Positions 24,001-42,240 of a stretch of DNA of 64,000 bases are shown piece by piece. Both the position numbers and the translations under genes were made by a program. Each line of letters begins with the position of its first letter. The stretch's first letter is position 1. The stretch is from an uncultured Acidimicrobiales bacterium (lineage in GTDB: Bacteria; Actinomycetota; Acidimicrobiia; Acidimicrobiales; SZUA-35). The notes beneath the pieces were generated by a model. It saw only the letters and a list, made by a program, of their open reading frames with translations, searched no databases and had not been told where the DNA came from. The stretch lies in the NCBI GenBank assembly GCA_937922805.1, contig CALAJV010000001.1, forward strand, positions 98,560-162,559, read 5' to 3'.

Positions 24001-24797
24001 ATCGCCACCTGGGCCCATTCGAAATCAAACCGCTCAGAACGACCGTGTTTCTCCCAACCCTCCATGATCGCAACATCAGCCGCGGCATAGTGACCAATGG
24101 CTTTGTTGGCAACAGCTAGCTTCAGGTAGATAACCGGAGGCGCGTCGTTGTGATTGGCTAGAACCCATTTGAGCCGCTCGATTGCCTCAGTCCACTGCTG
24201 AGCTTTGATGGCGATTTGAGCGTGTTCAATATCGAGTCGCTGCAACCTACCATGCACAGCCCAGCCTTCGGCGATGGCCTTGTCTGCCCCATCAAAATCC
24301 CCAAGGTCACTCTTGGCTATGGCAAGCTTGACATAGGCCACCGGGGGCAACTTTTCCGTGGTACTGGTGAGTTCTTCCAGCCGTGATGCAGCTGCGCCCC
24401 AATCTCGTTGCTTCATAGCGATATCGGCCCATTCCACCGCAATGATCGATGAATCCGGGAAACGGGCCCGACCAGCGAGAATCACTACCTCAGCACCATC
24501 AAGGTCGCCTTGTTCCCGGTGGGCTATCGACACCCACACATACAGCTGCGGAGTTACATCAACATGGTCGAGCAATGGCGTTAGCCGTTCCACCACTTCC
24601 GACCATTGCTGGTCACGAAACGCCGCCTCGGCCGCGGCGACATCCGAACCATTAGAGGTTGGACCTTGTTTTTGGCCATCGGCTCCCGGATCATCCTGAG
24701 CTTGGCTTCGCCGCCCGAACTTCCGGATCTTCATCACAGGCAAAGGCTTTCGTTCGACGCTTTTTTCTCGACCACTAAAACTTGATAAGACGGCCAC
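21090..24797 (-). CDS. 1235-aa protein with N-terminal TPR/Sel1-like tandem repeats and a C-terminal region resembling a GT-B-type (capsule-synthesis/KpsS-like) glycosyltransferase half
   Basis: There are at least four repeats of about 70 aa, with the pattern EWAxxAxxxxxWxEAxxRxxW...YxKLAxxxxxxGxxxxADxAIxxGWxxHGR. The C-terminus contains VVILGGKN...IYFKPKG...MFVSLSVASSAILEGLGRGIPGLV, a Rossmann-like pattern. The gene is transcribed divergently from pseB. Confidence 0.55.
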   Translation of the reverse strand: MAVLSSFSGREKSVERKPLPVMKIRKFGRRSQAQDDPGADGQKQGPTSNGSDVAAAEAAFRDQQWSEVVERLTPLLDHVDVTPQLYVWVSIAHREQGDLDGAEVVILAGRARFPDSSIIAVEWADIAMKQRDWGAAASRLEELTSTTEKLPPVAYVKLAIAKSDLGDFDGADKAIAEGWAVHGRLQRLDIEHAQIAIKAQQWTEAIERLKWVLANHNDAPPVIYLKLAVANKAIGHYAAADVAIMEGWEKHGRSERFDFEWAQVAMSASRWVEAVRRFEWLIGHYGELDSVVYIKLAICRFKAGNLIGADRAIYSGWTALGHQIELDLEWAALAKKAKNSADVVSRYRTVIERHGHAVGADSYVAFAQGLAAEGSRDEAIEVLHQTSEAFRHDGLALIELANVLLQVRNYSEAASYLEAAIKRDPAVDPRVYGRLAHVYRSDGKYNKAKEICRLAVEQWPSSAGSLSRWAQEAMIENDWPTALKRWQDLVTSEDERNAEKFDNDQLLPLVTLPEKAADLEWHEGHWRRFADSWVAGNGGAVSASATLYLALADVLIRVGSGSRALAILRQGVAVYPRHARLKYRLALFTLEASKPIVGQPSGIPVWSTLPESMANQALRDEIQAMEVSFAAAAPISRVRPTMEYRQFNVCQETSLELLVKGGRFFSANVVEERIRLQSEAELWPEMPQGSVPLEREALELANEFRSRFESQTDLAGPMLTEAVFRLIYAELCVREPVRRLAASIAKEAGTDPVFVELSGKPIEYMSSFTPTEIGQFYLYRELYRLGANVFFCCFVNQRSDPYQWNELNSLVLRPSPVLLRSRGTTKEVDKENTEVAVVPAGIRSIQTVVDELVDPLVYASGYVIQGLAYDRTTFEPLDLSATFLPPRSLLPVFKYDYDTVAWFESSDLVGANETSQTQLGLTVPIEGDWLDWLGEMLLPSLNEMYELCVAEVDLRQVKQAHVADNLYMETTVFAAAVSSRGGNVTLWPHSANPVDVQARHRDTFDRVNAVTQVGCETWKARFPDVEVAHRPDLMLDTPTMQLIDPNEPLSVVILGGKNTLGLMPFVHQSQHEVAYNKFFNGLEQLKNDCNIEIYFKPKGLSGENEAWLDRVIDGSVEWKTVVEHPLRLALPNMMFVSLSVASSAILEGLGRGIPGLVVAEALARDYTTIDGSSISSGSCAEIVEMVRRCALPGGLEELLASQWPYYRSQTGYHAPIIDLGVTPSTPSPQVNFAGR

Positions 24798-24877
24798 GTT
24801 ACCAGTCTCTTGCTGAGTTATGGTTACATTTCAGTGCATCAATAGACGCATGTTCGCCGCCGCTTGGAGATATCGCT

Positions 24878-25882
24878 TTGTTCGATAACAAGACCATTCT
24901 AGTTACCGGTGGTACCGGTTCATTTGGAAGACAATTCACCGAAACCATATTGAATCGGTACTCACCAGCCAAGATCATCATCTACAGCAGAGACGAACTA
25001 AAGCAGTTTGAGATGCAGTCGACCGAGCCGTTTGCCTCTAATAAGGGGGTTTTGCGGTGGTTTATCGGCGACGTGAGGGATGAACCCCGATTGCGGATGG
25101 CGATGGAAGGGGTCGACTACGTTGTCCACGCCGCTGCCCTCAAACAGGTACCAGCCGTCGAATACAACCCGTTTGAGGCAGTCAAGACCAATATAATTGG
25201 CGCAGAAAACATTATTAATGCTTGTATGAGCAGCAACGTGCATCGCGTTATAGCGTTAAGCACAGATAAGGCCGCTGCACCAATAAATCTTTATGGTGCA
25301 ACAAAGTTGGCGTCGGACAAGTTGTTCATCGCCGCCAACAATCACCGCGGGTCACGCGACATTCGCTTTTCAACCGTTCGGTACGGCAACGTGATGGGCA
25401 GTCGAGGCTCGGTCATCCCCTTCTTCCAGAAGAAGGCCACGTCCGGAGTTATTCCGGTAACCGATGAACGAATGACGCGCTTCAACATCACGCTCCAACA
25501 AGGGGTCGATTTCGTAATCTCATGCTTCGATCGAATGTGGGGCGGTGAAACGTTCGTGCCGAAGATTCCTTCTTATCGAATCCTCGACGTCGCCGAAGCC
25601 GTCGACCCAAACGCCGCGGTCAAAACTGTGGGTATACGCCCCGGCGAAAAACTACACGAAGAGATGATTACTCGAACCGATTCACTCATGACAGTCGAGT
25701 TCGACGACTACTTCGTGATCCTTCCATCATCGGAACAATGGAACGTCGATGACTTCCGCCGAGATAGCGGGTCGAGCAAAGGCCGCTCGGTCAAAGACGG
25801 TTTCAACTACAGCAGCGACAAAAACCCTGACTTCTTGACCGTTGAAGACATTCGCGCCCTGATCGAATCGGAACTGCGGTAA
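24878..25882 (+). CDS. pseB: UDP-N-acetylglucosamine 4,6-dehydratase (inverting)
   Basis: FDNKTILVTGGTGSFG, IIIYSRDELKQ, FIGDVRD, HAAALKQVP, ALSTDKAAAPINLYGATKL, VRYGNVMGSRGSV. The track ORF starts at 24782, which would overlap the divergent gene. The in-frame TTG at 24878 gives the canonical N-terminus. Confidence 0.85.
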   Translation: MFDNKTILVTGGTGSFGRQFTETILNRYSPAKIIIYSRDELKQFEMQSTEPFASNKGVLRWFIGDVRDEPRLRMAMEGVDYVVHAAALKQVPAVEYNPFEAVKTNIIGAENIINACMSSNVHRVIALSTDKAAAPINLYGATKLASDKLFIAANNHRGSRDIRFSTVRYGNVMGSRGSVIPFFQKKATSGVIPVTDERMTRFNITLQQGVDFVISCFDRMWGGETFVPKIPSYRILDVAEAVDPNAAVKTVGIRPGEKLHEEMITRTDSLMTVEFDDYFVILPSSEQWNVDDFRRDSGSSKGRSVKDGFNYSSDKNPDFLTVEDIRALIESELR

Positions 25883-27036
25883 TGTCCTACGTTCCGTATG
25901 GACGTCAAGTAATTGACGAAGATGACATAGCCGCTGTTGCTGATGTACTGCGGGGCGATTGGCTTACTACCGGACCAATGGTCGACGCTTTCGAAGCCGC
26001 CTTCTCATCGTTCGTAGATGCCGACTACGGCGTGGCAGTAAGTAACGGCACCGCAGCGCTACATCTGGCGATGTTGGCGGCAAACGTGGGTCCGGGGGAC
26101 GAAGTCATCGTTGCCGCGCTGACGTTTGCTGCGAGCGCCAATTGCGCTAGGTACGTTGGCGCCGATGTCGTCTTTGCTGATGTGGACGAAAAGACCTTGA
26201 CTATCGACACCGATCACGTTGCGTCGCTGATAACCGAACGAACAAAGGCAATCGTTGCTGTTGACTACGCCGGAATCCCTTGTGATTTGGATGAGCTTCT
26301 GGCTCTAGCGAGCGTTCACGATTTGGTCCTCATCGAGGATGCTTGCCACGCTCCAGGCGCTCAGTACAAAGGCCGCCCGGTCGGATCCATCGCTCACATG
26401 TCAACGTTCAGCTTTCACCCGGTCAAACACCTGACCACCGGTGAGGGCGGCATGGTTACGACCAATGACCCAGAGCTGGCGAATCGGGTTCGCAAGCTTC
26501 GAAGCCATGGAATCAGTACCGACTTCCGGGAGCGAGTTGAACAAGGAACTTGGGCCTATGACATGGTCGAGCTCGGATTCAACTACCGACTACCTGACTT
26601 GAACTGCGCTCTTGGACTATCCCAGCTTGAGAAGATGACCGGCTGGATTGATCGGCGGCAGCAGTTGGTCGCTAACTACAATCTGGCATTCGAAAAATTG
26701 GATCACGTTCGCACCCCAAGCCATCCCGACGACCGGGTCAGCACCTGGCACCTATACCCGTTTCGATTTACCGGCGAAGACGCCAACACGCTCCGGTCCG
26801 AAATGTTCGATCGGCTGCGAGCCGAAGGCATCGGGGTCAATGTTCACTACCTCCCGGTGTACTGGCACAGCTACTACCAAGGGTTGGGTTACAAACGAGG
26901 GCTTTGCCCCAAGGCCGAAGCGGCGTACGGCGGATTGCTTTCACTGCCAATGTGGCCTGGGCTTTCCGATCAATCCCAGAACCGCGTTATCGAGACTCTG
27001 ATCTCGAACTGTGAGGATCTCTTTGCTCTCCGATGA
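25882..27036 (+). CDS. pseC: UDP-4-amino-4,6-dideoxy-N-acetyl-beta-L-altrosamine transaminase (DegT family)
   Basis: The N-terminal PYGRQVIDEDDI...GDWLTTGPMV is characteristic of PseC. The FSFHPVKHLTTGEGG segment holds the PLP lysine. Its ATG overlaps the pseB stop by 1 nt. Confidence 0.85.
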   Translation: MSYVPYGRQVIDEDDIAAVADVLRGDWLTTGPMVDAFEAAFSSFVDADYGVAVSNGTAALHLAMLAANVGPGDEVIVAALTFAASANCARYVGADVVFADVDEKTLTIDTDHVASLITERTKAIVAVDYAGIPCDLDELLALASVHDLVLIEDACHAPGAQYKGRPVGSIAHMSTFSFHPVKHLTTGEGGMVTTNDPELANRVRKLRSHGISTDFRERVEQGTWAYDMVELGFNYRLPDLNCALGLSQLEKMTGWIDRRQQLVANYNLAFEKLDHVRTPSHPDDRVSTWHLYPFRFTGEDANTLRSEMFDRLRAEGIGVNVHYLPVYWHSYYQGLGYKRGLCPKAEAAYGGLLSLPMWPGLSDQSQNRVIETLISNCEDLFALR

Positions 27037-27742
27037 GTTATCCCCGACCGTAGCGATTGTTCCGGCCCGGGCTGGAAGTAAACGGATTCCAGGCAAGAAC
27101 ATCAAGCCGTTCTTGGGCACACCGTTGATCTCTCGAACAATCGAGACGCTTCGCAAGTCTCAAATCTTCGACCGCATCGTCGTATCTACCGACGGGGTAG
27201 ATATTGCCGAGATAGCGACCGCAGCCGGCGCCGATGTACCGTTCGTCCGGCCAGCAGATCTGTCTGACGACTACGCCACAACCGACGCAGTGATTCGCCA
27301 CGCAATCCAGCAGGTGGAAGCCGAAGGAACGACGCTTGGATTTGTATGTGTTGCGTACCCCGGTGCCATCTTGTCGACTGCCGACGATTTTCGTCGCTCC
27401 TATGAACTTATCCGTGGCGACGAATACGATTTCGTTTTTACCGCAACCAGCTTTCCATACCCAATTCAACGGGCGCTAAAGCGGCATAGTGACGGTTCTT
27501 GTGAGATGTTTGAACCGGCCGAGCTGCTAACTAGATCACAAGATCTAGAAGAGGCGTTTCATGACGCCGGACAGTTCTACTGGGGTCGAAGAGACGCGTG
27601 GGCATCGGGCAAAGCCGTATTCACGAGCCGGTCGCTGATGTATGAACTTCCCCGCCATCGGGTTCAAGACATTGACACCCCACAAGACTGGGAGCGGGCT
27701 GAGCTTCTCTATCGACTGCTGGAGTTATCTGATGTCAACTGA
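27011..27742 (+). CDS. pseF: Pseudaminic acid cytidylyltransferase (CMP-sugar synthetase family)
   Basis: VAIVPARAGSKRIPGKNIKPFLGTPLI and IVVSTD motifs. It overlaps the end of pseC. The exact start is uncertain (GTG 27011 or TTG 27023). Confidence 0.8.
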   Translation: MRISLLSDELSPTVAIVPARAGSKRIPGKNIKPFLGTPLISRTIETLRKSQIFDRIVVSTDGVDIAEIATAAGADVPFVRPADLSDDYATTDAVIRHAIQQVEAEGTTLGFVCVAYPGAILSTADDFRRSYELIRGDEYDFVFTATSFPYPIQRALKRHSDGSCEMFEPAELLTRSQDLEEAFHDAGQFYWGRRDAWASGKAVFTSRSLMYELPRHRVQDIDTPQDWERAELLYRLLELSDVN

Positions 27743-28910
27743 GCTGTTCTCTTTAACTGGCACAACGGTTGTTCCTCTACCTGGCGCGTTCTTGGCTCCG
27801 GTGCTACCGAGCGATGCGACGCTTCTCATTCGGTCCGACGCTTCTCACCACATCGGTGCCGGGCACATCATGCGGTGTGTTGCCCTTGCTCAGGAATGGG
27901 CGTTTCGAGGCGGCACCGTACTGGTTGCCTCGAACGAACTAACAGAGTCGACCCAGTCCAAGTTGGATGCCAACAACATCGTGTCGATACATGTAGGGCC
28001 CAGCGGACAAGACTTCCGAGAACTAGCCGACGAAATCGGTCCGACCTGGATCGTGCTCGACGTTGGCGTAGCGGTACATGAACACTTAGCCGCCATTGGC
28101 GATGCCTACGATGTCTTGGCCATCGATGACCTTGGCGGCCGGTTTGCGACTAGCCCTACGCTCGTACTCAATCAGAATGCTCACGGGCCATCAACCCCCT
28201 ACGCTGGCATCCAGCCAAACAAGTTGTTGCGGGGCCTTGAGTACATTTTGCTTCGAGACGAGTTTTTGGATGAACAGCCTTCGGTTTGCGGCACCGAACC
28301 AACTGTTCTCGTTGCCATGGGTGGAACCGACCCGTTGCAACTACTCCCCGATCTAATCGACTCCCTCGCTTCCAGCTCAAAAGCAAAGATCTTGGCTGTT
28401 GCCAGCTCCCACCACCCCCAGCTCAATCGACTGGAAGAACTCAACCAGGGCCACCAACGAGTTGAGCTTCACCTCGATGTTTCAAACATGGCCCAGCTTA
28501 TGAAGCAGTGCGACCTAGCTCTGACCTCGGGTGGGACGACCGTTTGGGAACTGGCTTATCTCGGCATACCTTCTGTCGTGGGAGCGGTAGCCGAGGTTGA
28601 AGATCGCCTTTTAGACGGCTTGAATCGGATCGATTTGTTCGAAACGATTGGACCGCTCGAAAACAAGACTGCTGAAGCCATCGCCGAGATCGTATTGCAA
28701 GTTGAGCAGGATCAAGAGTGGCTCAAAGCCACACGGACAAAAGCCCAAGAGATAGTGGATGGACACGGGCGACTCCGCGTTCTAGATCGGATGACATCTG
28801 CATCTCGCCTGGCCGACCTTCCTATCGACTCTTCCATCAACGACCGACCAAACGGTCCAGATGTTGAGGCCCAATCGGCGATGAACAACACCGCCGTTAC
28901 CAGCTCCTAG
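27732..28910 (+). CDS. pseG: UDP-2,4-diacetamido-2,4,6-trideoxy-beta-L-altropyranose hydrolase
   Basis: LLIRSDASHHIGAGHIMRCVALAQEW is the PseG N-terminal signature. C-terminal SGGTTVWELAYLGIP fits a GT-B/MurG-like fold. The ATG at 27732 overlaps the pseF stop (ATGTCAACTGA), and the track's upstream extension to 27642 is unlikely. Confidence 0.75.
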   Translation: MSTELFSLTGTTVVPLPGAFLAPVLPSDATLLIRSDASHHIGAGHIMRCVALAQEWAFRGGTVLVASNELTESTQSKLDANNIVSIHVGPSGQDFRELADEIGPTWIVLDVGVAVHEHLAAIGDAYDVLAIDDLGGRFATSPTLVLNQNAHGPSTPYAGIQPNKLLRGLEYILLRDEFLDEQPSVCGTEPTVLVAMGGTDPLQLLPDLIDSLASSSKAKILAVASSHHPQLNRLEELNQGHQRVELHLDVSNMAQLMKQCDLALTSGGTTVWELAYLGIPSVVGAVAEVEDRLLDGLNRIDLFETIGPLENKTAEAIAEIVLQVEQDQEWLKATRTKAQEIVDGHGRLRVLDRMTSASRLADLPIDSSINDRPNGPDVEAQSAMNNTAVTSS

Positions 28911-28992
28911 GCCGCCGGCGGCCTACTAGCTACTTCTGTTACTTACCTACTCGTCATATTTCTAGTTCAAGAGCAAAATTGATCGGAGCACA

Positions 28993-29943
28993 ATGGTTAA
29001 CAAACCAAGAGCCTTGGTTACCGGCGCGGCCGGTGTGATCGGGCGTCAGCTGACCAAGCGTCTACTGAACGACGGCCACGAGGTGATGGCCATCGACCGC
29101 AAGGTCATGCCAGATTTGGATTGGGGCAAACTTGAGTTCATTCAAGGCGACCTGTCCGAAATGGACCTGTCTGAGGCAGAGAAGTTTCAGCCCGAGGCCG
29201 TGTTCCACTTGGCTGCATCGTTCGAACGATCCGAGGAGTCGGCCGAGTACTGGGATATCGGCTGGCGCGACGACGTTGTTTCGTCTCACCGGGTTATCGA
29301 TTCTCTGGCTCGATCAGCTCATACCAGAACTTTTGTCTTTGCTTCCAGCTATTTAACCTACGAACCATCCCTGTACCTGTTCGATGCCCCCAACGACAGT
29401 CCGGCGTCGCTGAACGAAATCGACCGGGTAAGCCCTCGCAATCTTTGTGGAGCAGGCAAGTACTACACCGAACAAGAGCTGGCCTACGTTACCAACACCA
29501 CTCGACCCGACCTTCGGGTCGTCAACGCCCGCATCTACCGGGTATACGGCAAAGGGTCCCGCGACGTTATTTCCCGATGGATCGAAGCAGGACTGGCCGG
29601 AGAAACGATCGAGGTTTACAACAAGTCCAACCGATTCGACTACGTCTTCGCTGACGACGTCGCTGAGTCACTTCATCGCCTCCAGCAACAGAGCGAAGCA
29701 AGCGGTGTGTACAACATTGGTACCGGGTCGACCTCTTCTATCTCTGAGGTGGTCGAAGCGCTGAAACAAGCCGAAGTGCTGTCCCCGTCCCAAATTGTCG
29801 AGCAAGGGGAATCAGCACCGTTCGAAGCAAGCAAAGCTGACGTACGTAGGCTTCGCGAAGATATCGGCTGGACGCCTCCTACTACGCCGCTAGAGGGCAT
29901 CCGCCAAATCTCAGCGGCGTTGCAAGGAGCGGACCTTGTCTAA
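28993..29943 (+). CDS. NAD-dependent epimerase/dehydratase family protein (extended SDR)
   Basis: N-terminal Rossmann motif LVTGAAGVIGRQL. About 316 aa, typical of sugar-nucleotide epimerases and reductases. Confidence 0.75.
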   Translation: MVNKPRALVTGAAGVIGRQLTKRLLNDGHEVMAIDRKVMPDLDWGKLEFIQGDLSEMDLSEAEKFQPEAVFHLAASFERSEESAEYWDIGWRDDVVSSHRVIDSLARSAHTRTFVFASSYLTYEPSLYLFDAPNDSPASLNEIDRVSPRNLCGAGKYYTEQELAYVTNTTRPDLRVVNARIYRVYGKGSRDVISRWIEAGLAGETIEVYNKSNRFDYVFADDVAESLHRLQQQSEASGVYNIGTGSTSSISEVVEALKQAEVLSPSQIVEQGESAPFEASKADVRRLREDIGWTPPTTPLEGIRQISAALQGADLV

Positions 29944-30901
29944 GACCCGCTCTAATGAACAATCGCCAAGCCCAACCAGCTCTGGAGTCGAGGAGTCAGT
30001 TGTGATCAGTGAAACGGCGGAGGTAGTAGTCGACCCCGAGTGGGGCTACATTCGCCTGAACCCAATTCCGGCCGAGGACGATCTCGCCGCCTTCTACCAG
30101 AGTTCCTACTACGACTCGTTAAGGCAGGGCAACCGAGCCCCGGATCTGAGTCGGATGCAACAGGGTGGTCCAGAAGCCGAGCGAGAACGAGCGTGGATTT
30201 GCGAAACGGTGCATCACGACATCATCGAATGGGCGGTGACCTATCACGGGGAGACTGGCTGTGTCCTGGAAGTAGGATCGGGCGGAGGCGAACTTCTTGA
30301 TTCGTTCGCGGCCCAAGGGTGGACCGCCAAAGGCTTAGAGCCTGCGGCTCAGGCCGCCGAGAACTGCCGGGCTCGAGGGTTGGATGTTCAAGCGCTAACG
30401 CTTGAACAATATCTGACTCAGATCTCCCCAAATGACGTGGACATTGATGTCGTGGTTCTTCGACTAGTTCTTGAACACGTGCGGAACCCAATCGAGCTGT
30501 TGCAAAACTGTCACCAGGCACTTAGGACCGGGGGCCTGCTGATAGTTGAGGTACCGAACGACTTTAACGGGTTCCAAAAAGCAGCCCAGGCCAAACTCGA
30601 TCTCGATCAATGGTGGGTGGCGAGTCCGGACCATGTCAACTATTTCGACTTTGACTCTCTGTCCAACATCTTGGAGCGAATCAGTTTCGACATCGTCGAC
30701 CGGACGACCAGTTTCCCAATGGAGCTATTTCTTCTCATGGGTGACAACTACGTCGGAGACTCCGACGTAGGATCGGCCTGCCACGAACGCAGGCGAAGTC
30801 TTGAGCTAAACATGCCTCATCGAGTTCGACAAGAGTTCTACCGGGCACTAGCGGGAGCAGGGATGGGACGGACCTGCCGGATCGCCGCGGTGGCGAAATG
30901 A
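29936..30901 (+). CDS. Class I SAM-dependent methyltransferase
   Basis: SAM-binding motif VLEVGSGGGELLD and post-I acidic residue pattern. It overlaps both neighbouring genes. Confidence 0.75.
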   Translation: MSKTRSNEQSPSPTSSGVEESVVISETAEVVVDPEWGYIRLNPIPAEDDLAAFYQSSYYDSLRQGNRAPDLSRMQQGGPEAERERAWICETVHHDIIEWAVTYHGETGCVLEVGSGGGELLDSFAAQGWTAKGLEPAAQAAENCRARGLDVQALTLEQYLTQISPNDVDIDVVVLRLVLEHVRNPIELLQNCHQALRTGGLLIVEVPNDFNGFQKAAQAKLDLDQWWVASPDHVNYFDFDSLSNILERISFDIVDRTTSFPMELFLLMGDNYVGDSDVGSACHERRRSLELNMPHRVRQEFYRALAGAGMGRTCRIAAVAK

Positions 30902-31857
30902 ACGTTCTTATTACCAGTGCGTCCAGAAAGGTCTCGCTTGTCGATTCTTTTTCGGAAGCGTTGGGCGGCAGGGGAAACGTTATTGCCGCTGACATCACCC
31001 AGTGGGCCGCAGCAATGCATGTTGCTGACCAATCGGTGATCGTGCCTAGGAGCGACTCCGGCGACTTTGTAAAAGCGATTCTCGAAATCTGCGAGGAACT
31101 GAACGTTGGTCTGGTAATCCCAACTCGGGACGAAGAGCTGCCGATCCTGGCCAAGGCCATCGACGATTTCACTGCGATAGGCACCCGAGTTCACGTTTCG
31201 TCACCGCAATCGATAGCTTCGTGCTTGGACAAACGAGCCTTTCACCAATTCTGCCTGGAGCATGGCTTTGCTATCCCCACCGTCGTAGCCGACCCAGGAG
31301 CGACTAATGCTCCCCTATTTGTTCGACCCCGATTCGGCAAAGGCAACACCGGAACCTACGCGGTTCAAACCCCAAGCGAATTAGCACAACTTCAACAACA
31401 GTGGCCGACGATTGCCGACGCAGTAGTTGTAAACCATCTAATGGACGCGCCAGAATTCACCATTGATGTGTTCTTGGCTTTGGACGGCGTAGCCACGTCG
31501 GCTGTGCCCCGAGAGCGGATGCAAGTAGTGGCGGGTGAGAGCTACGTTGGGCGGACGGTTAACGATCCCGAGCTCGCAGCCGAATCGATCCGGCTGTGCC
31601 AAATGATGGGTTTGACCGGCCACAACACGGTCCAGGCTTTCCGAACTCCAAACGGTTTCGAGTTCATCGAGGTAAATCCCCGGTTCGGTGGCGGAGCCGC
31701 CCTGAGCATGGCGGCCGGAGCCCCAAGCCCTCGCTGGCTGATTCAAGAAACCGCTGGCATACCGTTTGATCCGGCGCCCGGGTCGTTCCAGCCTGAGCTT
31801 GTCATGTTGCGTTACACCCGAGATGTTTGGATATCTGAGTCGGAGCTGGCCCAATGA
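30898..31857 (+). CDS. ATP-grasp domain protein
   Basis: Pre-ATP-grasp N-terminus (MNVLITSASRKVSLV...GLVIPTRDEEL). Central DKRAFHQFCLEHGFAIP...FVRPRFGKG. C-terminal FIEVNPRFGGG is typical of ATP-grasp ligases. ATGA overlaps on both sides. Confidence 0.7.
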   Translation: MNVLITSASRKVSLVDSFSEALGGRGNVIAADITQWAAAMHVADQSVIVPRSDSGDFVKAILEICEELNVGLVIPTRDEELPILAKAIDDFTAIGTRVHVSSPQSIASCLDKRAFHQFCLEHGFAIPTVVADPGATNAPLFVRPRFGKGNTGTYAVQTPSELAQLQQQWPTIADAVVVNHLMDAPEFTIDVFLALDGVATSAVPRERMQVVAGESYVGRTVNDPELAAESIRLCQMMGLTGHNTVQAFRTPNGFEFIEVNPRFGGGAALSMAAGAPSPRWLIQETAGIPFDPAPGSFQPELVMLRYTRDVWISESELAQ

Positions 31858-32666
31858 CCGCTACCAGCCAAAGCAACCCAATTCCTCGGTCAACCGATCG
31901 AGTTGGAACCAAGCAGGGATCTATTCACGACCGCGACCTTTATCGCCGCCGAACCGGCGATCGGCCAGTTGTTGAATCAGTCATCTTTGACCTCGACGAC
32001 ACCTTATATAACGAAATGACATTCGTTATAGGCGCCTTCACCGAGGTAGCAGTCTTCCTTGCTCAGCGAACCGGACTTGAAGCCAAGACACTTCTTGATC
32101 ATCTGCTGATGATCGAGCGGCGAGACGGTCGAGGTCAAGTATTCGAAACACTGCTGGCCAGCTACTCGCTCAACCCGAAATGGGCCAAAGCGATGCTAGC
32201 GACCTACCGTTCAGCCGTCCCACCACTGTCGTTTTTTGCCGACACGACTGCTCTTTTGACGTCGTTGTCAGCCGCCGGCATTCCGACCGCGGTTGTTACC
32301 GACGGATACGGCCTCGTACAGGCAAACAAAGCGGCCGGTCTTCATCTCGACACGCACGTTGATGCCATTGTTTATACCGACAGCCTGGGTCACGGTGGGG
32401 CCAAGCCAGGAACCGCCGGTTTCGAAACTGCATTAGCCATGATCGGCAGCGAGGAATCAACCTCTGCATATGTCGGCAACGACGTGACGAAAGACTTCAT
32501 AGGGCCACGACAACTTGGGATGCAGTCGGTCTTGATCAACCGCAAAACAATCGGCCGGGTCGAAGACCAACCAGCCTTTGCCCACCCAGACCACATCGTG
32601 CCCACGTTGTCTGATCTTCCCCGCGTTCTGAAATTCAAATCACCGCTCGATAGGAGAACAGCATGA
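31854..32666 (+). CDS. HAD-superfamily hydrolase
   Basis: Motif I VIFDLDDTLY, motif II VVTDG and a motif IV-like YVGNDVTKD. ATGA overlaps on both sides. Confidence 0.7.
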   Translation: MTATSQSNPIPRSTDRVGTKQGSIHDRDLYRRRTGDRPVVESVIFDLDDTLYNEMTFVIGAFTEVAVFLAQRTGLEAKTLLDHLLMIERRDGRGQVFETLLASYSLNPKWAKAMLATYRSAVPPLSFFADTTALLTSLSAAGIPTAVVTDGYGLVQANKAAGLHLDTHVDAIVYTDSLGHGGAKPGTAGFETALAMIGSEESTSAYVGNDVTKDFIGPRQLGMQSVLINRKTIGRVEDQPAFAHPDHIVPTLSDLPRVLKFKSPLDRRTA

Positions 32667-33721
32667 AAATCAACCAGCGAATCATCGACATTGATGAACC
32701 GATGTACATTATTGCCGAACTGTCGGCGAACCACGGTCAGGACCTCGACGTCGCCCTCGAAATGATCGAGGCCGCTGCTGCTTGCGGCGCCGACGCGGTC
32801 AAGCTCCAAACCTACACCCCAGACACCATCACGCTGGACGTCGCCGATGGCCCATTTTTGATTGAAGAAGGTTCGTTGTGGGCCGGACGATCGCTCCATG
32901 ACCTCTATCAAGATGCCTACACACCGTGGGACTGGTTTCCGACCTTGGCCGATGCCGCCAGCAAAGCTGGAGTGGACATTTTCTCAAGCCCGTTCGACCT
33001 AACCGCTGTTGCCTTCCTAGAAGGCCAAGACGTTCCAGCGTTCAAGATTGCGTCGTTTGAACTCGTCGATCACGCGCTTATTCGAGCAGTGGCCAACACC
33101 GGAAAGCCGATGATCATGTCAACCGGCATGGCTACGCTCTCTGAGATCGCCGAGGCGGTACAGGTTGCACGCGCTGCTGGCTGTAGCGATCTTGCCCTTT
33201 TGCGGTGCAACTCGGGCTATCCGACTCCGTTAACCGAAATGGATTTGCGAACGATCCCGAGCATGATATCGACCTTTGATTGCCCGATCGGTTTGTCCGA
33301 TCACACCGACGGCATTGAAGCGGCCATCGTCGGTCGAACTCTGGGCGCTTGCATTCTCGAAAAACACTTTGTCCTCGATCGGTCATCTGGCGCTCTCGAT
33401 GCAGAATTCTCCCTCGAACCAGATGAATTCGCGGCCATGGTTACCGGTATTCGACGAACCGAGGAGATGCTCGGCGCCGTTCGGTATGGGCCGACGGCTC
33501 GCGAGAAACATTCGCATGTCCACCGACGTTCACTTTTCGTGGCCGAAGATGTGCGCAAGGGTGAGACCTTCACCGATGCCAACGTTCGTTCGGTCCGTCC
33601 TGGTCAGGGTTTGGCGCCCAAGTTTCTGCCGATCGTCCTCGGATCCACGGCAACTCGGGATCTGAAGAAGGGCACGCCGGTTTCGTGGGAAGCCTTGTCG
33701 GGGGAACCGCTAACTTCATAA
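32663..33721 (+). CDS. pseI: Pseudaminic acid synthase
   Basis: IIAELSANHGQDL, GADAVKLQTY, FSSPFD, PAFKIASFE, GKPMIMSTGMATLSEI and LLRCNSGYPTP, plus a C-terminal SAF-like domain. Confidence 0.85.
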   Translation: MKINQRIIDIDEPMYIIAELSANHGQDLDVALEMIEAAAACGADAVKLQTYTPDTITLDVADGPFLIEEGSLWAGRSLHDLYQDAYTPWDWFPTLADAASKAGVDIFSSPFDLTAVAFLEGQDVPAFKIASFELVDHALIRAVANTGKPMIMSTGMATLSEIAEAVQVARAAGCSDLALLRCNSGYPTPLTEMDLRTIPSMISTFDCPIGLSDHTDGIEAAIVGRTLGACILEKHFVLDRSSGALDAEFSLEPDEFAAMVTGIRRTEEMLGAVRYGPTAREKHSHVHRRSLFVAEDVRKGETFTDANVRSVRPGQGLAPKFLPIVLGSTATRDLKKGTPVSWEALSGEPLTS

Positions 33722-33886
33722 CGCCGCTCGGTGTTAAACAACCGAGCTGGGAAAACCGTCCTACTTTCGAATAGCCTTACGCCGTAGGATTGGGAATCGA
33801 CCTCAGCTACACTGGACTTGGGTCGGATCACTGGTCAGGCCTGTACGCAAGCAAAAATGCGATTGCTAGGTGGGATTAGCAGCGTT

Positions 33887-35074
33887 ATGTCAACAGACAG
33901 ATTTTCAATCTTTTTCGGTTGCGCAGTAGATCAAGTTCGGCGACCGTTTCACAATCGAAAACCGACGCAATCTATACTGTCGTTGGTTCTGATCGCCGCG
34001 TTCGGACTCGTTCTTGGTGCGTGTGCAGGCCCATTGTTTTCCGGTGGCGATGGGGTTCAGGATAATTTGGAACCACCAACGAGATCCGTGGTTACCGGAC
34101 CCATTGCCAGCCAAAGCGATGTCCCCACCCCAATCTCAGCGTTTTCTACCTCCGCCATCCGCAACACATCTACTGAAGTCACAGATAGGAGCGGGACGTT
34201 TCACCGGGCTGGGATACAGCACCAACAGAACCAGGAATGGGAACAAGCAATTCGTAGCTATACCAAAGCAATAAACGAGAACCCGGCCCACCCTGACGCC
34301 TATTTCAATCGCGGCTCGGCCAACCAGGTGCTCGGCAGACATGGCGCTGCTATTACCGACTTCAGCGCCCATATTCGGCTCAACCCCACCGACCCAAGAG
34401 CATTCAACAACCGGGGACTGTCCAACCAAGCTCGTGCTAGCTACACCGATGCGCTTCAAGACTTCAACCAAGCTTTGCGACTCGATCCAACGCTGGCAGC
34501 GGCCTACGCCAACCGGAGCCAATCACTGTTCTGGCTCGATGAATTCGAAATGGCACGCATCGATCTTGAACTGGCGATCAGTTCTGGCGCCGACCATCCA
34601 GACATTTACTTCAACCTCGGCTTACTCCACTATTCGATGGGCCAACCCGACGAGGCACTATCTAGCTACGGTCGAGCGTTATCTCTTGCTCCTGACGCTC
34701 CGTGGATTTTCCACGAACGAGGCCTGATCTATTTCGAGATGGGAGATCTTCCAAAGGCGCAGTTAGACCTTGAAGCAGCCATCTCGCTCGACCCCAAAAA
34801 TCCCAAGCCTCACTATGATCTTGGCCTACTCCAGCATCATCAGGGACAAACCAAGCCGGCGATTGGCAAATATACGGTGGCGCTCCAACTTGATCCATAT
34901 CATTGGGACGCTCGACAGAACCGGGCAGTCGCCTACGCTGCGACTAAACAGAACCAGCGAGCAATCCAAGATCTTGACCGGCTTCTGGGCAACTCTGAGT
35001 TGTCCGATTCTGCCCGAGCCGAGATCGACCAGTGGATCGCTACCCTCGAGGCTGGTCAAAATCCATTCTCGTAA
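33887..35074 (+). CDS. TPR-repeat lipoprotein
   Basis: Lipobox GLVLGAC-AG. Eight or more canonical 34-aa TPR units (AxxxYxxAIxxNPxxxxAYxNRG pattern). The ATG at 33887 is preferred, while the track ORF begins at 33818. Confidence 0.7.
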   Translation: MSTDRFSIFFGCAVDQVRRPFHNRKPTQSILSLVLIAAFGLVLGACAGPLFSGGDGVQDNLEPPTRSVVTGPIASQSDVPTPISAFSTSAIRNTSTEVTDRSGTFHRAGIQHQQNQEWEQAIRSYTKAINENPAHPDAYFNRGSANQVLGRHGAAITDFSAHIRLNPTDPRAFNNRGLSNQARASYTDALQDFNQALRLDPTLAAAYANRSQSLFWLDEFEMARIDLELAISSGADHPDIYFNLGLLHYSMGQPDEALSSYGRALSLAPDAPWIFHERGLIYFEMGDLPKAQLDLEAAISLDPKNPKPHYDLGLLQHHQGQTKPAIGKYTVALQLDPYHWDARQNRAVAYAATKQNQRAIQDLDRLLGNSELSDSARAEIDQWIATLEAGQNPFS

Positions 35075-35152: not shown

Positions 35153-36268
35153 ATGATTCTTGACTCCTTAGATGTCAGCCAAGACGCGTTTGAGACCGGA
35201 ACCGGTTGGGAGATCAAACCTGAAGGAGCGTGCAAGGGCGACGTTTGTATTCCGCTACCCTCGCCGCCCGAAGCGGGCCGAGTTGACGTTGAATCGATCG
35301 CCGACCAAATGGGCCTTCCACTAGTGGGCGACCCAGAGCGTTCTGTTTGGGCCCTTGGTCCCGAGTCAGTCGGCGCCCGAACTTTGTTGAGCGCACAGGC
35401 CCCAGAGCTACGGTTGCCCGATCTAAACGGCAACCAATTCACTCTTTCGTCTTTACGAGGATCCAAGGTGGTAATGGTGGCATGGAGCCCCTATTGAGGA
35501 TGCTCTGCTGATCTGCCCGTGTGGCAGGCCTTTCGCGAAGACGTCGCCGACCAAGGCGTCGAGATAGTAACCGTGGCATTAGAAACGACTGGGGCAGAGG
35601 CGTGCCGGCAATTCATTGAAGCCGCCAATCCCGCTCACCCATCGCTGATCGACCAGTATCATAAATCGGCCGAACTGTTCGGCTTCGTCAATATCCCGAA
35701 TGCAGTCTGGATCGATGAAGACGGCATGATCGTTCGACCGTCGGAGCCTGCTCCCGCTCCACCGTCAATGAAAGCGGACCGACCGAACATTTTCGCCGAC
35801 CTTGTTCCGCCCCAGCGCCTGCTCGACATCATGGGCGAGGCCGTCAAAATTCGATCCAACCCGGCGGCCTACGAAGCGGCGTTACGGGATTGGTTCACCA
35901 ACGGTAGTCAAAGCCAATTCGCCATGACCCCGGATGAGGTAGTCAATCGATCGCAGCCTCGCAGCGCTGACGAAGCACGGGGCCAGGCCAACTTCGAACT
36001 TGCGGCCCATTTCGAAGCGAACGGCGATCACGATGCCGCCATTCCCTACTATCGAGAAGCGCATCGGCTGACCCCTGAAAACTTCAGCTATCGACGTCAG
36101 GCGTGGTCGCTAGAACCCAACGAACTTGATGGTCCAGTGGCCAGATTTTGGCAGGGTCCAGCCGTTGGAGCAGAAGACGCCTGGCCCTACGAAGGTGACT
36201 GGCTAAGCGACGTTAAAGCCATGGGGGCCGAAAACTACTATCCAGAGTTCAAGGCCGAACAGGCCTAG
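35153..36268 (+). CDS. Thioredoxin-fold (ResA/redoxin-like) protein with in-frame UGA at the redox motif, a candidate selenoprotein (alternatively a split or pseudogenised gene)
   Basis: ORFs 35153-35497 and 35519-36268 share one frame and are separated only by TGA at 35495-35497. Read through, the sequence is KVVMVAWSPY-[TGA]-GCSADLPVWQAF...VEIVTVAL...IPNAVWIDEDGMIVR, a complete redoxin fold with the stop at the position of the nucleophilic Cys. Confidence 0.55.
35512..35528 (+). other. Hairpin downstream of the in-frame UGA (bacterial SECIS-like)
   Basis: tctgcc-cgtgt-ggcagg forms a 6-bp stem (including one G-U pair) with a 5-nt loop containing GU. It starts 14 nt after the TGA. Confidence 0.4.
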
Positions 36269-41595: not shown

Positions 41596-42240
41596 ATGCC
41601 CCGATTGCGGCAAGTACCAAAAGCCGATGCTCATAAGTTCGGTCAAGCGATGTACACGTTGTTGTTCGGAGAGCGAGACCCGGTTGAGCAGCCGGGAACA
41701 GCCAGTGGGACTCCCGGGAATTGGTGGACCGTGTTCGCTTTAGTCCCTGATGCGTTCGATCACACCACCAGCGGTTTCCAGTTTTACCGTTCCCCCGATC
41801 GGATACTTGATCCTAAGCTTCGGGAGCTAGGCCAAACGAGAGCGGGATGGACTACCGGCAGCCAGTTCGTCTTCAGTCAACACAGTAAAGCCTGTCGTGA
41901 CATCGGTTTCACCGACGAACAAGTTGCAGCAATACCTTCCTGGTCGGTAGCTAACTGTTGGACTCCGGTGGAGCGAGCGGTATTGGCCTACACCGACTGT
42001 CTTACTCTGCAACACGGTCGCGTTCCAGAAGCACTTTTTGATGAGCTGAAACGACACTTATCAGACGAAGAAATACTGGAATTCACCTACATCACTTGCA
42101 CCTACGCCATGCACGCCACGATGTCCAAGGCCTTGCGGCTTGAATACGATGATGTTGACGATCCGGTAGTCGAAATGCCTGATTTAGCAGGCAACTTCGC
42201 TGGCCTTGACGTGATGTCGGTAGTCGACGAAACCGAATAG
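41596..42240 (+). CDS. Carboxymuconolactone decarboxylase (AhpD-like) family protein
   Basis: All-helical, 214 aa, with the C-terminal half pattern LRELGQTRAGWTTGSQFVFSQH...ERAVLAYTDCL as in the CMD family. Confidence 0.5.
   Translation: MPRLRQVPKADAHKFGQAMYTLLFGERDPVEQPGTASGTPGNWWTVFALVPDAFDHTTSGFQFYRSPDRILDPKLRELGQTRAGWTTGSQFVFSQHSKACRDIGFTDEQVAAIPSWSVANCWTPVERAVLAYTDCLTLQHGRVPEALFDELKRHLSDEEILEFTYITCTYAMHATMSKALRLEYDDVDDPVVEMPDLAGNFAGLDVMSVVDETE

Follow-up and report, generated by a model that had tools for sequence, protein, structure and literature searches.

Selenocysteine (Sec)-containing proteins with a UGC motif have been listed as a Prx/TlpA-like family in selenoproteome surveys (PMC2398784, PMC13188914), and MDE0950781.1 has been given as an example accession of the UGC-containing TlpA-like family (PMC13188914). 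NCBIfam holds an equivalog model, NF041054 ('WAxxUGC_long'), for proteins named "ResA-like WAxxUGC motif-containing protein". A literature search for the term 'WAxxUGC' found no paper using it. For the RNA element that directs Sec insertion in bacteria, the bSECIS consensus model (Zhang and Gladyshev; summary in PMC13188914) describes a loop of 3–9 nt with G within the first two positions followed by G or U, an upper stem of 4–16 bp, a spacing of 16–37 nt from the UGA, and an MFE of −7.5 kcal/mol or lower. The locus described here very probably encodes, in a single gene, a three-domain thiol/selenol oxidoreductase of the cytoplasm that belongs to the 'WAxxUGC' family and whose nucleophile would be Sec inserted at an in-frame UGA by means of a downstream hairpin.

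Family assignment

The read-through protein, searched with C written at the UGA position, matched the NF041054 profile with 500.1 bits (E 3.6e-150; cut-off 300), and its residues 1–367 were aligned on profile positions 1–353 of 354. The curated WAxxUGC family named in the initial annotation does exist. The motif of the present protein, W-S-P-Y-[UGA]-G-C, retains the exact U-G-C while Ala is replaced by Ser, and it was counted as a WAxxUGC motif; the W-S variant was frequent among the nearest Acidimicrobiales relatives. Database relatives named after the family included an Acidimicrobiia MAG protein and a protein of Frankia sp. QA3.

Gene layout and reading frame

The window, meaning the whole 64-kb stretch of DNA that was analysed, contained two open reading frames at 35,153–35,497 and 35,519–36,268 on the forward strand, on which all features described below are located. 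Analysis of frame and translation bore out the initial annotation in that both lie in the same frame with TGA at 35,495–35,497 as the sole separator. The first starts with ATG and ends at this TGA after 114 codons, and beyond it the frame has no further stop until TAG at 36,266–36,268. The complete selenoprotein gene spans 35,153–36,268 and consists of 371 codons including the Sec-UGA, followed by the TAG, which gives a read-through product of 371 residues. The residues around the site are KVVMVAW-S-P-Y-[TGA]-G-C-SADLPVWQ. The in-frame UGA (35,495–35,497) corresponds to Sec115 at the position of the catalytic nucleophile, and the TGC codon at 35,501–35,503 corresponds to Cys117, the partner Cys of the U-G-C redox motif. 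The two adjacent frames are one gene for a thioredoxin-fold redox protein with Sec as the predicted catalytic residue.

TGA terminated 14 of the window's 46 long ORFs; it has not been reassigned there and otherwise serves as an ordinary stop, as had been remarked earlier. A search for other selenoprotein genes among the 34 same-frame TGA-split ORF pairs of the window revealed none with a redox-motif context. Public records (Logan/ENA/NCBI) with identical DNA call the gene as ORFs of 114 aa and 249 aa.

Sec/Cys column among homologues

The initial annotation had proposed asking whether Cys or Sec occupies this column in homologues, and both were found. Every one of the 161 related loci (163 gene copies) in which the column was readable had an in-frame TGA there. 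This set was composed of 80 species-level genome loci with 82 gene copies between them, the window, and 80 metagenome loci. The metagenome scan was seeded with Cys forms, yet it returned Sec forms only (80/80). TGC or TGT was found at the column in 10 true Cys-form homologous genes, which made up the whole Cys-form DNA control and came from the loci of 9 database proteins, the Frankia locus holding two. The possibility that a database 'C' represents a rewritten U could be rejected, since each of the 10 Cys-form genes checked had TGC or TGT in its DNA. Among the best 120 database homologues, 71 were fragments beginning just past the TGA column, while 48 of the 49 full-length proteins carried W-A-x-x-C-G-C.

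Conservation of the protein was strong on both sides of the TGA, with a mean column identity of 74% downstream. The G-C following the UGA (alignment columns 10–11) was invariant, and Cys117 was found in 79/79 Sec forms and 22/22 Cys forms. An in-frame UGA aligned with Cys of homologues, flanked on both sides by conserved coding sequence, is expected of a bacterial selenoprotein gene, and both features are seen here. It is these comparative data, and not the folding energy of the hairpin region, that place the UGA beyond chance.

The same data bear on a possible sequencing error, strain-specific nonsense mutation, or pseudogene, in which case the two ORFs would be left over from a broken Cys gene. 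Public gene callers do give two genes, and Cys-containing homologues do exist. Against this, the TGA recurs at one column in independent loci that come from different species and samples, an intact frame runs through a protein conserved on both sides, and the identical sequence is present in independent assemblies. Error or nonsense mutation is refuted by the sharing of the TGA between genome and metagenome loci, and the probability left to this explanation as a whole is negligible.

Predicted SECIS hairpin

A hairpin, UCUGCC-CGUGU-GGCAGG, was located at 35,512–35,528, with the 5' arm at 35,512–35,517, the loop at 35,518–35,522, and the 3' arm at 35,523–35,528. It begins 14 nt after the UGA, forms a 6-bp stem present in both the MFE and centroid folds, and codes for (D)-L-P-V-W-Q-(A). 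The bacterial SECIS geometry first attributed to it agrees with the published bSECIS model (loop CGUGU of 5 nt, stem of 6 bp, UGA-to-loop spacing of 20 nt, and a borderline MFE of −7.5/−7.6 kcal/mol) and is further backed by covariation and by suppressed synonymous variation. Comparison with shuffled sequences gave a z of +0.5 for the 61–111 nt region and −2.4 for the 17-mer, values which are not exceptional when taken alone, and the folding energy of 48–111 nt around the site was no better than that of shuffles. A search of Rfam revealed no SECIS match, either in the whole window at the gathering threshold or in a permissive scan of 35,440–35,620; three weak hits (snoRNA, lncRNA, narK) were dismissed as chance.

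RNAalifold analysis of 150 distinct sequences revealed the 6-bp hairpin as the only consensus structure. The extended lower stem of the window's MFE fold was rejected, as RNAalifold showed no conserved pairs beyond the 6-bp stem. Across the 150 sequences, pairing was maintained in 98.9% of 900 cells, compared to 22–68% in slid-register controls. Double changes were observed at 3 pairs, and one sequence carried a G-C to C-G swap. None of 500 shuffles reached the observed number of paired cells, the number of cells changed on both sides, or the covariation score. Pairs 21-37 and 22-36 alternated among C-G, U-A, and U-G; the outermost pair, 21-37, was unpaired in 9/150 sequences and pair 22-36 in none. 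The hairpin, which shares its coding sequence with D-L-P-V-W-Q, was nearly invariant in its nucleotides among actinobacterial as well as other lineages.

Synonymous variation dropped sharply right at the hairpin, where third-base entropy was 0.00 bits at Leu+6, 0.74 at Pro+7, and 0.11 at Val+8, compared to approximately 1.3–2.0 bits elsewhere. In the 79-sequence set, Leu+6 was YTG in 79/79, Pro+7 was never CCG or CCT, and Val+8 was GTG in 64/65. Among Cys forms with the same peptide, Pro was encoded by CCG in 3/7, against 1/141 Sec forms (p = 2.6e-4), and codon +8 was other than GTG or GGG in 3/7, against 4/150 Sec forms (p = 1.8e-3). The constraints on the loop are relaxed in Cys forms sharing the peptide. 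Conservation of the stem alone is no proof of RNA function, because the conserved amino acids L-P-x-W-Q fix 4 of the 6 stem pairs and 4 of the 7 Cys forms with this peptide still form all six. The comparative data present, with unusual clarity, a minimal bacterial SECIS whose sequence overlaps that of a conserved peptide.

The hairpin could alternatively serve coupling or reinitiation in a true split gene, with a 114-aa protein ending at the TGA and a 249-aa protein starting from GTG at 35,519. This GTG occupies codon +8 in 128/150 sequences and is the start chosen by gene callers, but in 20/150 sequences codon +8 is GGG or GGT, neither of which is able to start translation. Protein-level conservation extends through the seven codons that separate TGA from GTG, including the invariant G-C, and these codons are therefore translated. 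A split would moreover cut the thioredoxin fold within its active site, and the full-length Cys homologues are single polypeptides. Two separate proteins are accordingly considered highly improbable, and a single polypeptide read through the UGA is retained.

Domain architecture of the read-through protein

The thioredoxin-fold (TlpA/ResA-like) domain with U115-G-C117 occupies 35,393–35,743 (residues 81–197), as determined from Pfam, PDB-chain matches, and Foldseek. The Pfam matches to AhpC-TSA (E 3.4e-12; 46.8 bits against a cut-off of 26) and Redoxin (E 4.6e-11) cover residues 81–196. Since they run across the TGA at residue 115, neither ORF half is a whole domain, and the earlier proposal that the halves read through to one thioredoxin-fold protein holds. 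Sequence matches to ResA, TlpA, and thioredoxin-family chains were obtained with E values of 1e-9 to 1e-5. Foldseek analysis of the domain retrieved ResA and DsbE with target-normalised TM values of 0.70–0.76 and an rmsd of about 2 Å over about 116 residues.

The initial annotation had placed the UGA at the W-C-x-x-C site of ResA/redoxin proteins. Its position could be confirmed, as solved thioredoxin-family proteins such as PDB 3kcm have the first Cys of CxxC aligned with the UGA, whereas the motif itself differs, U-G-C being one residue shorter than C-x-x-C. HMMER aligned U-G-C to C-P-P-C only with a one-residue gap, so that the protein has the fold and lacks the C-x-x-C. Scores against the curated models were below their cut-offs for ResA (56.4 vs 170), StoA (38.9 vs 210), TlpA (29.2 vs 230), and DsbE (22.3 vs 123). 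The peroxiredoxin motif P-x-x-x-T-x-x-C(U) was tried and is absent, since the sequence reads M108...S112-P-Y-U115 and lacks Pro at −7. Most relatives carry Ala at position −3 (W-A-S-W-C).

The extensions reported on both sides of this domain are real and measure about 80 aa and about 170 aa. The N-terminal domain (35,153–35,392; residues 1–80), recognized from conservation and the homologue model, carries a Cys27-x4-Cys32 pair; C27 was found in 78/79 and C32 in 77/79 Sec forms, and both were found in 22/22 Cys forms. It is small and beta-rich with a pLDDT of about 90 in the homologue model, and Foldseek found no solved structural counterpart. The C-terminal helical domain (35,744–36,265; residues 198–371) has helices at 220–355 in the homologue model and many invariant residues (RQAWSLE, RFWQGP, WPY, NYY). 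It includes a TPR-like repeat at approximately residues 277–315 (35,981–36,097), where Pfam TPR matches were sub-threshold (residues 276–315) and consensus TPR proteins matched residues 277–313.

A simple hydropathy test, used in place of a dedicated predictor, revealed no signal peptide or membrane segment (maximum 19-residue hydropathy 1.02) and so no sign of the extracytoplasmic location typical of ResA/TlpA/DsbE proteins. The N-terminal 30 residues are acidic, with a net charge of −5.

Sec machinery and gene neighborhood

Genes for selA, selB, and selD were searched by Pfam on 20 large ORFs of the window and in the Pfam table for 26–47 kb, and none was found. A tblastn search with the E. 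coli proteins over 1.5 Mb of related loci likewise found nothing. The 64-kb window contained no tRNA genes, and the few tRNAs flanking related loci L001–L060 did not include tRNA-Sec. The window's neighbor genes were not found beside the gene at other loci. A conserved neighborhood was rejected as a functional clue, as no neighbor family recurred in more than 8/79 loci.

In some systems, a hairpin located downstream can promote read-through. Together with the lack of Sec machinery in the window and in the 1.5 Mb of related loci, this would be compatible with a UGA read through without selenium, either by near-cognate insertion of Trp, Cys, or Arg helped by the hairpin or by reassignment of the stop. 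Reassignment is opposed by the ordinary use of TGA as a stop in the window. Further, the UGA column is the column of the catalytic Cys, Sec/Cys exchange is a hallmark of selenoproteins, and the hairpin fits the SelB-type bSECIS model in its loop G followed by U/G and in its spacing. The family is also curated as a selenoprotein and listed in the surveys cited above, and Actinomarinales, the sister order in the class Acidimicrobiia, has complete Sec machinery with all four genes (preprint 10.64898/2026.04.03.716425). Selenium-free read-through is therefore judged very unlikely, and insertion of Sec remains the preferred reading.

Proposed mechanism and significance

The central claim of the initial annotation, that the UGA is recoded to Sec where a ResA/redoxin-like protein has its catalytic residue, is supported by the NF041054 match, the Sec/Cys column, and the bSECIS hairpin. 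By the established bacterial mechanism, the hairpin at 35,512–35,528 would recruit SelB-GTP with Sec-tRNA(Sec) at the UGA; Sec would be inserted in place of termination, and the ribosome would go on to the TAG at 36,266–36,268. Sec115 is predicted to lie where the first helix of the TlpA/ResA-like fold begins, the usual place of the nucleophilic Cys of CxxC. Sec115 and Cys117 may then cycle between the selenol/thiol and selenenylsulfide states while a disulfide or peroxide substrate is reduced. Electron relay and partner binding are the probable roles of the Cys27/Cys32 pair and the TPR-like C-terminal domain. Literature searches found no biochemical characterisation, selenium labelling, or proteomics for any family member.

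A more far-reaching suggestion, which we regard as rather unlikely, is that the family is not a ResA-like disulfide reductase but an uncharacterised, self-contained cytoplasmic redox enzyme, in which a U-G-C (CxC-type) selenenylsulfide center is served by the Cys-x4-Cys and TPR-like partner-binding domains. If this were true, the 17-nt hairpin would rank among the smallest natural SECIS elements of bacteria.

The main value of the locus is in annotation: once the Sec codon is recognized, two hypothetical proteins become one redox enzyme of 371 residues, and this Acidimicrobiales organism would count as a Sec user. The data set of 150 distinct Sec-form and 10 Cys-form sites could guide SECIS models for Actinomycetota.

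Comparison with known systems

Both the present hairpin and the E. coli fdhF-type bSECIS are coding-region stem-loops just 3' of the UGA, and both have a small apical loop whose first positions hold G followed by U (or G). The present hairpin is much shorter than the fdhF SECIS element of roughly 40 nt, and no conserved lower stem or bulged U could be detected in it.

Compared with ResA, TlpA, DsbE (CcmG), and StoA, the active site is found at the same beta1-alpha1 junction following a conserved Trp. Besides the shorter motif, the present protein differs from these in having extra N- and C-terminal domains and in its gene showing no linkage to cytochrome c maturation genes.

The gene probably belongs to the published UGC-containing Prx/TlpA-like family, judging from its motif and domain. 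The two share the Sec motif UGC, the best Pfam domain PF00578, and a TlpA-like thioredoxin fold, and Cys homologues are far more numerous than Sec forms. The published family is reported to be commoner in non-marine samples (PMC13188914), in line with the numerous freshwater and soil loci of the present set; the papers on it describe the motif without the long N- and C-terminal domains. With a real Sec recoding site in a family already curated and published, the finding is correct but ordinary. The closest agreement is with NF041054, to which the protein corresponds over the whole profile in its three-domain architecture and U-G-C center, the Ser after Trp in place of Ala being the only difference.

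Reading frame of the split gene

The first ORF (35153–35497) had 114 codons, from an ATG start to the TGA at 35495–35497, beyond which the frame remained open until the TAG at 36266–36268. The second ORF (35519–36268) was called from the GTG at 35519. The initial annotation had described two ORFs in one frame separated by a TGA, neither of them a complete domain, and both statements were borne out. The read-through product was 371 residues long, with the UGA as residue 115 in the context KVVMVAW-S-P-Y-[UGA]-G-C-SADLPVWQAF. The AhpC-TSA and Redoxin (Pfam) matches covered residues 81–196 across the UGA, so that either half alone represents an incomplete domain. TGA terminated 14 of the 46 long ORFs of the window and is thus a normal stop there, as had also been noted; no other TGA-split candidate was found in the window. 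Selenocysteine (Sec) recoding at the UGA very probably explains the split gene. This interpretation, proposed in the initial annotation, was supported by a match to the curated family NF041054.1, a conserved TGA/Cys column and a covarying hairpin.

Sec and Cys at the active-site column

Homologues were searched among 5.8 billion proteins and classified from the best 120 matches. Fragments accounted for 71 of these (238–277 aa, 60–96% identity), all starting at (M/V)WQxFR directly past the UGA column, which identifies them as split gene calls. The other 49 were full-length (315–378 aa, 45–57% identity), and 48 of them carried W-A-x-x-C-G-C. Among 80 species-level genome loci, nearly all from Acidimicrobiales, Acidimicrobiia or Ilumatobacteraceae MAGs, every readable locus had an in-frame TGA at exactly the same column, amounting to 82 gene copies including that of the window. 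Two of these loci contained two tandem paralogues each (L059:6827 and 7917; L073:3733 and 4819), with UGA in both. When metagenomes were scanned with Cys forms as seeds, 80 loci were recovered, and all 80 had TGA, including soil-type W-A-S-W-[UGA]-G-C forms. As this Cys-seeded scan returned only TGA, the database "C" came into doubt and the DNA of the Cys forms was checked. Ten genes were read, at the loci of nine full-length proteins from the database (two paralogues at the Frankia locus); all had TGC or TGT, and a disguised Sec could be rejected. Both states at the column are therefore real and form a classic Sec/Cys signature. The single TGA column shared across genome and metagenome loci excluded a sequencing error, a nonsense mutation or a pseudogene.

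In Frankia sp. QA3, the two Cys-form paralogues (L165:10352 and 12931) lay on either side of a 485-aa gene for which no Pfam family was found. The gene also occurred in MAGs labelled Bifidobacterium breve, Pseudomonadales, Gammaproteobacteria and Deltaproteobacteria (L041, L045, L049, L053, L076), in copies that Ilumatobacteraceae or Acidimicrobiales MAGs also carry in near-identical form; mislabelling or misbinning is probably responsible rather than lateral transfer.

Hairpin downstream of the UGA

The hairpin UCUGCC/CGUGU/GGCAGG (35512–35528), placed 14 nt past the UGA in the initial annotation, appeared in both the minimum-free-energy (MFE) and the centroid fold, whether 61 or 111 nt were folded. 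Its SECIS-like geometry was confirmed against the consensus bacterial SECIS model of a 2026 review (PMC13188914), with every feature inside the published range: an apical loop of 5 nt, CGUGU (model 3–9 nt), an upper stem of 6 bp (4–16 bp), a UGA-to-loop spacing of 20 nt (16–37 nt) and a borderline MFE of -7.5 to -7.6 kcal/mol (≤ -7.5 kcal/mol). No matching Rfam model was found for the hairpin.

RNAalifold analysis of 150 distinct Sec-form sites predicted this 6-bp helix as the sole structure. Standard pairs made up 98.9% of the 900 pair cells, compared to 22–68% when the 3' arm was slid by 1–3 columns. Two-sided changes occurred at three pairs (27 cells in total), and none of 500 shuffles matched the observed number of paired cells, number of cells with two-sided change or covariation score. 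The fifth pair, joining base 1 of the Leu codon and base 3 of the Gln codon, was C-G in 120, U-A in 17 and U-G in 13 of the 150 sites and unpaired in none; the sixth, joining base 3 of the Asp codon and base 1 of the next codon, was C-G in 125, U-A in 9, U-G in 7 and unpaired in 9. In one metagenome locus (L118, 428–490), G-C was replaced by C-G via Leu CTC and a Gln-to-Ala (GCG) change, which is a compensatory change involving amino-acid replacement.

Third-base entropy in a 79-gene codon alignment was approximately 1.3–2.0 bits at conserved four- and six-fold codons over the whole gene and collapsed at the hairpin codons. Counted from the UGA, it was 0.00 bits at Leu +6 (CTG 66, TTG 13), 0.74 bits at Pro +7 (CCC 61, CCA 16, with CCG and CCT absent) and 0.11 bits at Val +8 (GTG 64, GTT 1). 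Conservation of the L-P-x-W-Q peptide alone dictates four of the six stem pairs, and all six pairs were kept in four of the seven Cys forms sharing this peptide. However, loop constraints were significantly relaxed in these Cys forms relative to Sec forms: Pro CCG occurred in 3/7 against 1/141 (p = 2.6e-4), a codon +8 other than GTG or GGG in 3/7 against 4/150 (p = 1.8e-3), and Leu CTT was seen in one Cys form. In remoter Cys forms (D-L-P-L, D-L-R-L) the stem was wholly broken. From these sequence comparisons it was concluded that the hairpin is a putative functional RNA element specific to Sec forms, the stem of which appears to make use of an already conserved peptide.

Two Cys forms, P0002 (L164:539) and P0004 (L172:632), were approximately 80% identical to Sec forms and kept the inner five hairpin pairs, with Pro CCG in the loop and the sixth pair broken; they resemble genes that have recently replaced Sec by Cys and in which a "fossil" SECIS is now decaying. 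The Tyr codon before the UGA (35492–35494; columns 1–3 of the Sec-form nucleotide alignment A3) was TAT in 73 of 79 Acidimicrobiales-type genes; other conserved Tyr columns of these genes were 75–92% TAC, and the metagenome set had TAC 43, TAT 14 and TGG 9 before the UGA. The TAT bias may reflect an influence, specific to this lineage, of the base preceding the UGA.

Sec machinery and gene neighbourhood

No tRNA gene was found in the window, and none of its larger ORFs resembled SelA, SelB or SelD. A tblastn search with the E. coli proteins gave no match in the window or in any of the related loci analysed (1.5 Mb in total). Evidence in favour of a Sec pathway is indirect: according to a 2026 preprint (10.64898/2026.04.03.716425), Actinomarinales, the sister order in the class Acidimicrobiia, have selA, selB, selC and selD in 84 of 84 complete genomes. 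A 99-nt "tRNA-Pro(cgg)" called by ARAGORN at L019:10190–10288 (minus strand) was almost certainly a false positive given its length and its position within the selenoprotein coding region, on the opposite strand.

No conserved neighbour of the selenoprotein gene was found across related loci. Upstream, on the same strand, lay a gene cluster for the biosynthesis of nonulosonic (sialic-like) acid and sugar nucleotides (24782–33721; including Polysacc_synt_2, DegT aminotransferase, CTP_transf_3, epimerase, methyltransferase, ATP-grasp protein, HAD hydrolase and NeuB), followed by a TPR protein gene (33818–35074) directly preceding the selenoprotein gene; neither was kept beside it at other loci. 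The window also contained a carboxymuconolactone decarboxylase (CMD/AhpD-like) gene (41596–42240, 214 aa), the ORF of which is not interrupted by any in-frame TGA. Sec-containing members of that family are known elsewhere (PMC13188914).

Protein architecture and relation to known families

HMMER aligned W-S-P-Y-U-G-.-C of the window protein on W-A-T-W-C-P-P-C of the thioredoxin-family PDB 3kcm. This places Sec115 at the nucleophilic first-Cys position, in agreement with the catalytic position in a redoxin fold suggested earlier; U-G-C has one residue fewer than CxxC. For the Cys homologue P0002, which shares 57% identity with the window protein, an AlphaFold2 model (mean pLDDT 89.4, pTM 0.88) comprised a small beta-rich N-terminal domain, a central thioredoxin fold with the active site where helix 116–133 begins, and a helical C-terminal domain. 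Solved structures were matched by the central domain alone, namely ResA, DsbE, TlpA and StoA (target-normalised TM 0.70–0.76, rmsd about 2 Å over about 116 residues). Cys117 was invariant, and Cys27 and Cys32 of the N-terminal domain were conserved whether the active-site column held Sec or Cys. Cys151 (35603–35605, E-A-C-R) was shared by 63 of the 79 Sec forms and was not in the conserved column set of Cys forms; it could be an additional resolving or relay residue specific to Sec forms. As no hydrophobic segment was found and the N-terminus is acidic, the protein is probably cytoplasmic, unlike ResA and TlpA.

The hairpin would direct SelB-dependent Sec insertion at the UGA, and a Sec115/Cys117 selenenylsulfide cycle may then reduce a disulfide or peroxide substrate, with possible relay and partner-binding roles for the flanking domains.

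With Cys in place of the UGA residue, the protein matched the NCBIfam equivalog model NF041054.1 "WAxxUGC_long" ("ResA-like WAxxUGC motif-containing protein") at 500.1 bits (curated cut-off 300), over residues 1–367 and profile positions 1–353 of 354. The curated WAxxUGC family mentioned in the initial annotation is thus real and includes the window gene; scores against the ResA, StoA, TlpA and DsbE models were far under their cut-offs. The GOS selenoproteome paper (PMC2398784) lists a "Prx-like (UGC-containing)" entry (pfam00578, motif UGC) that comprises 46 sequences with Sec and 855 homologues with Cys and is commoner in non-marine samples. A UGC-containing TlpA-like selenoprotein family is likewise listed in PMC13188914. 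By motif and domain, we infer that these published entries probably represent the same family. The selenoprotein family to which the window gene belongs was already known, and its occurrence in an uncultured Acidimicrobiales genome is not a new phenomenon.
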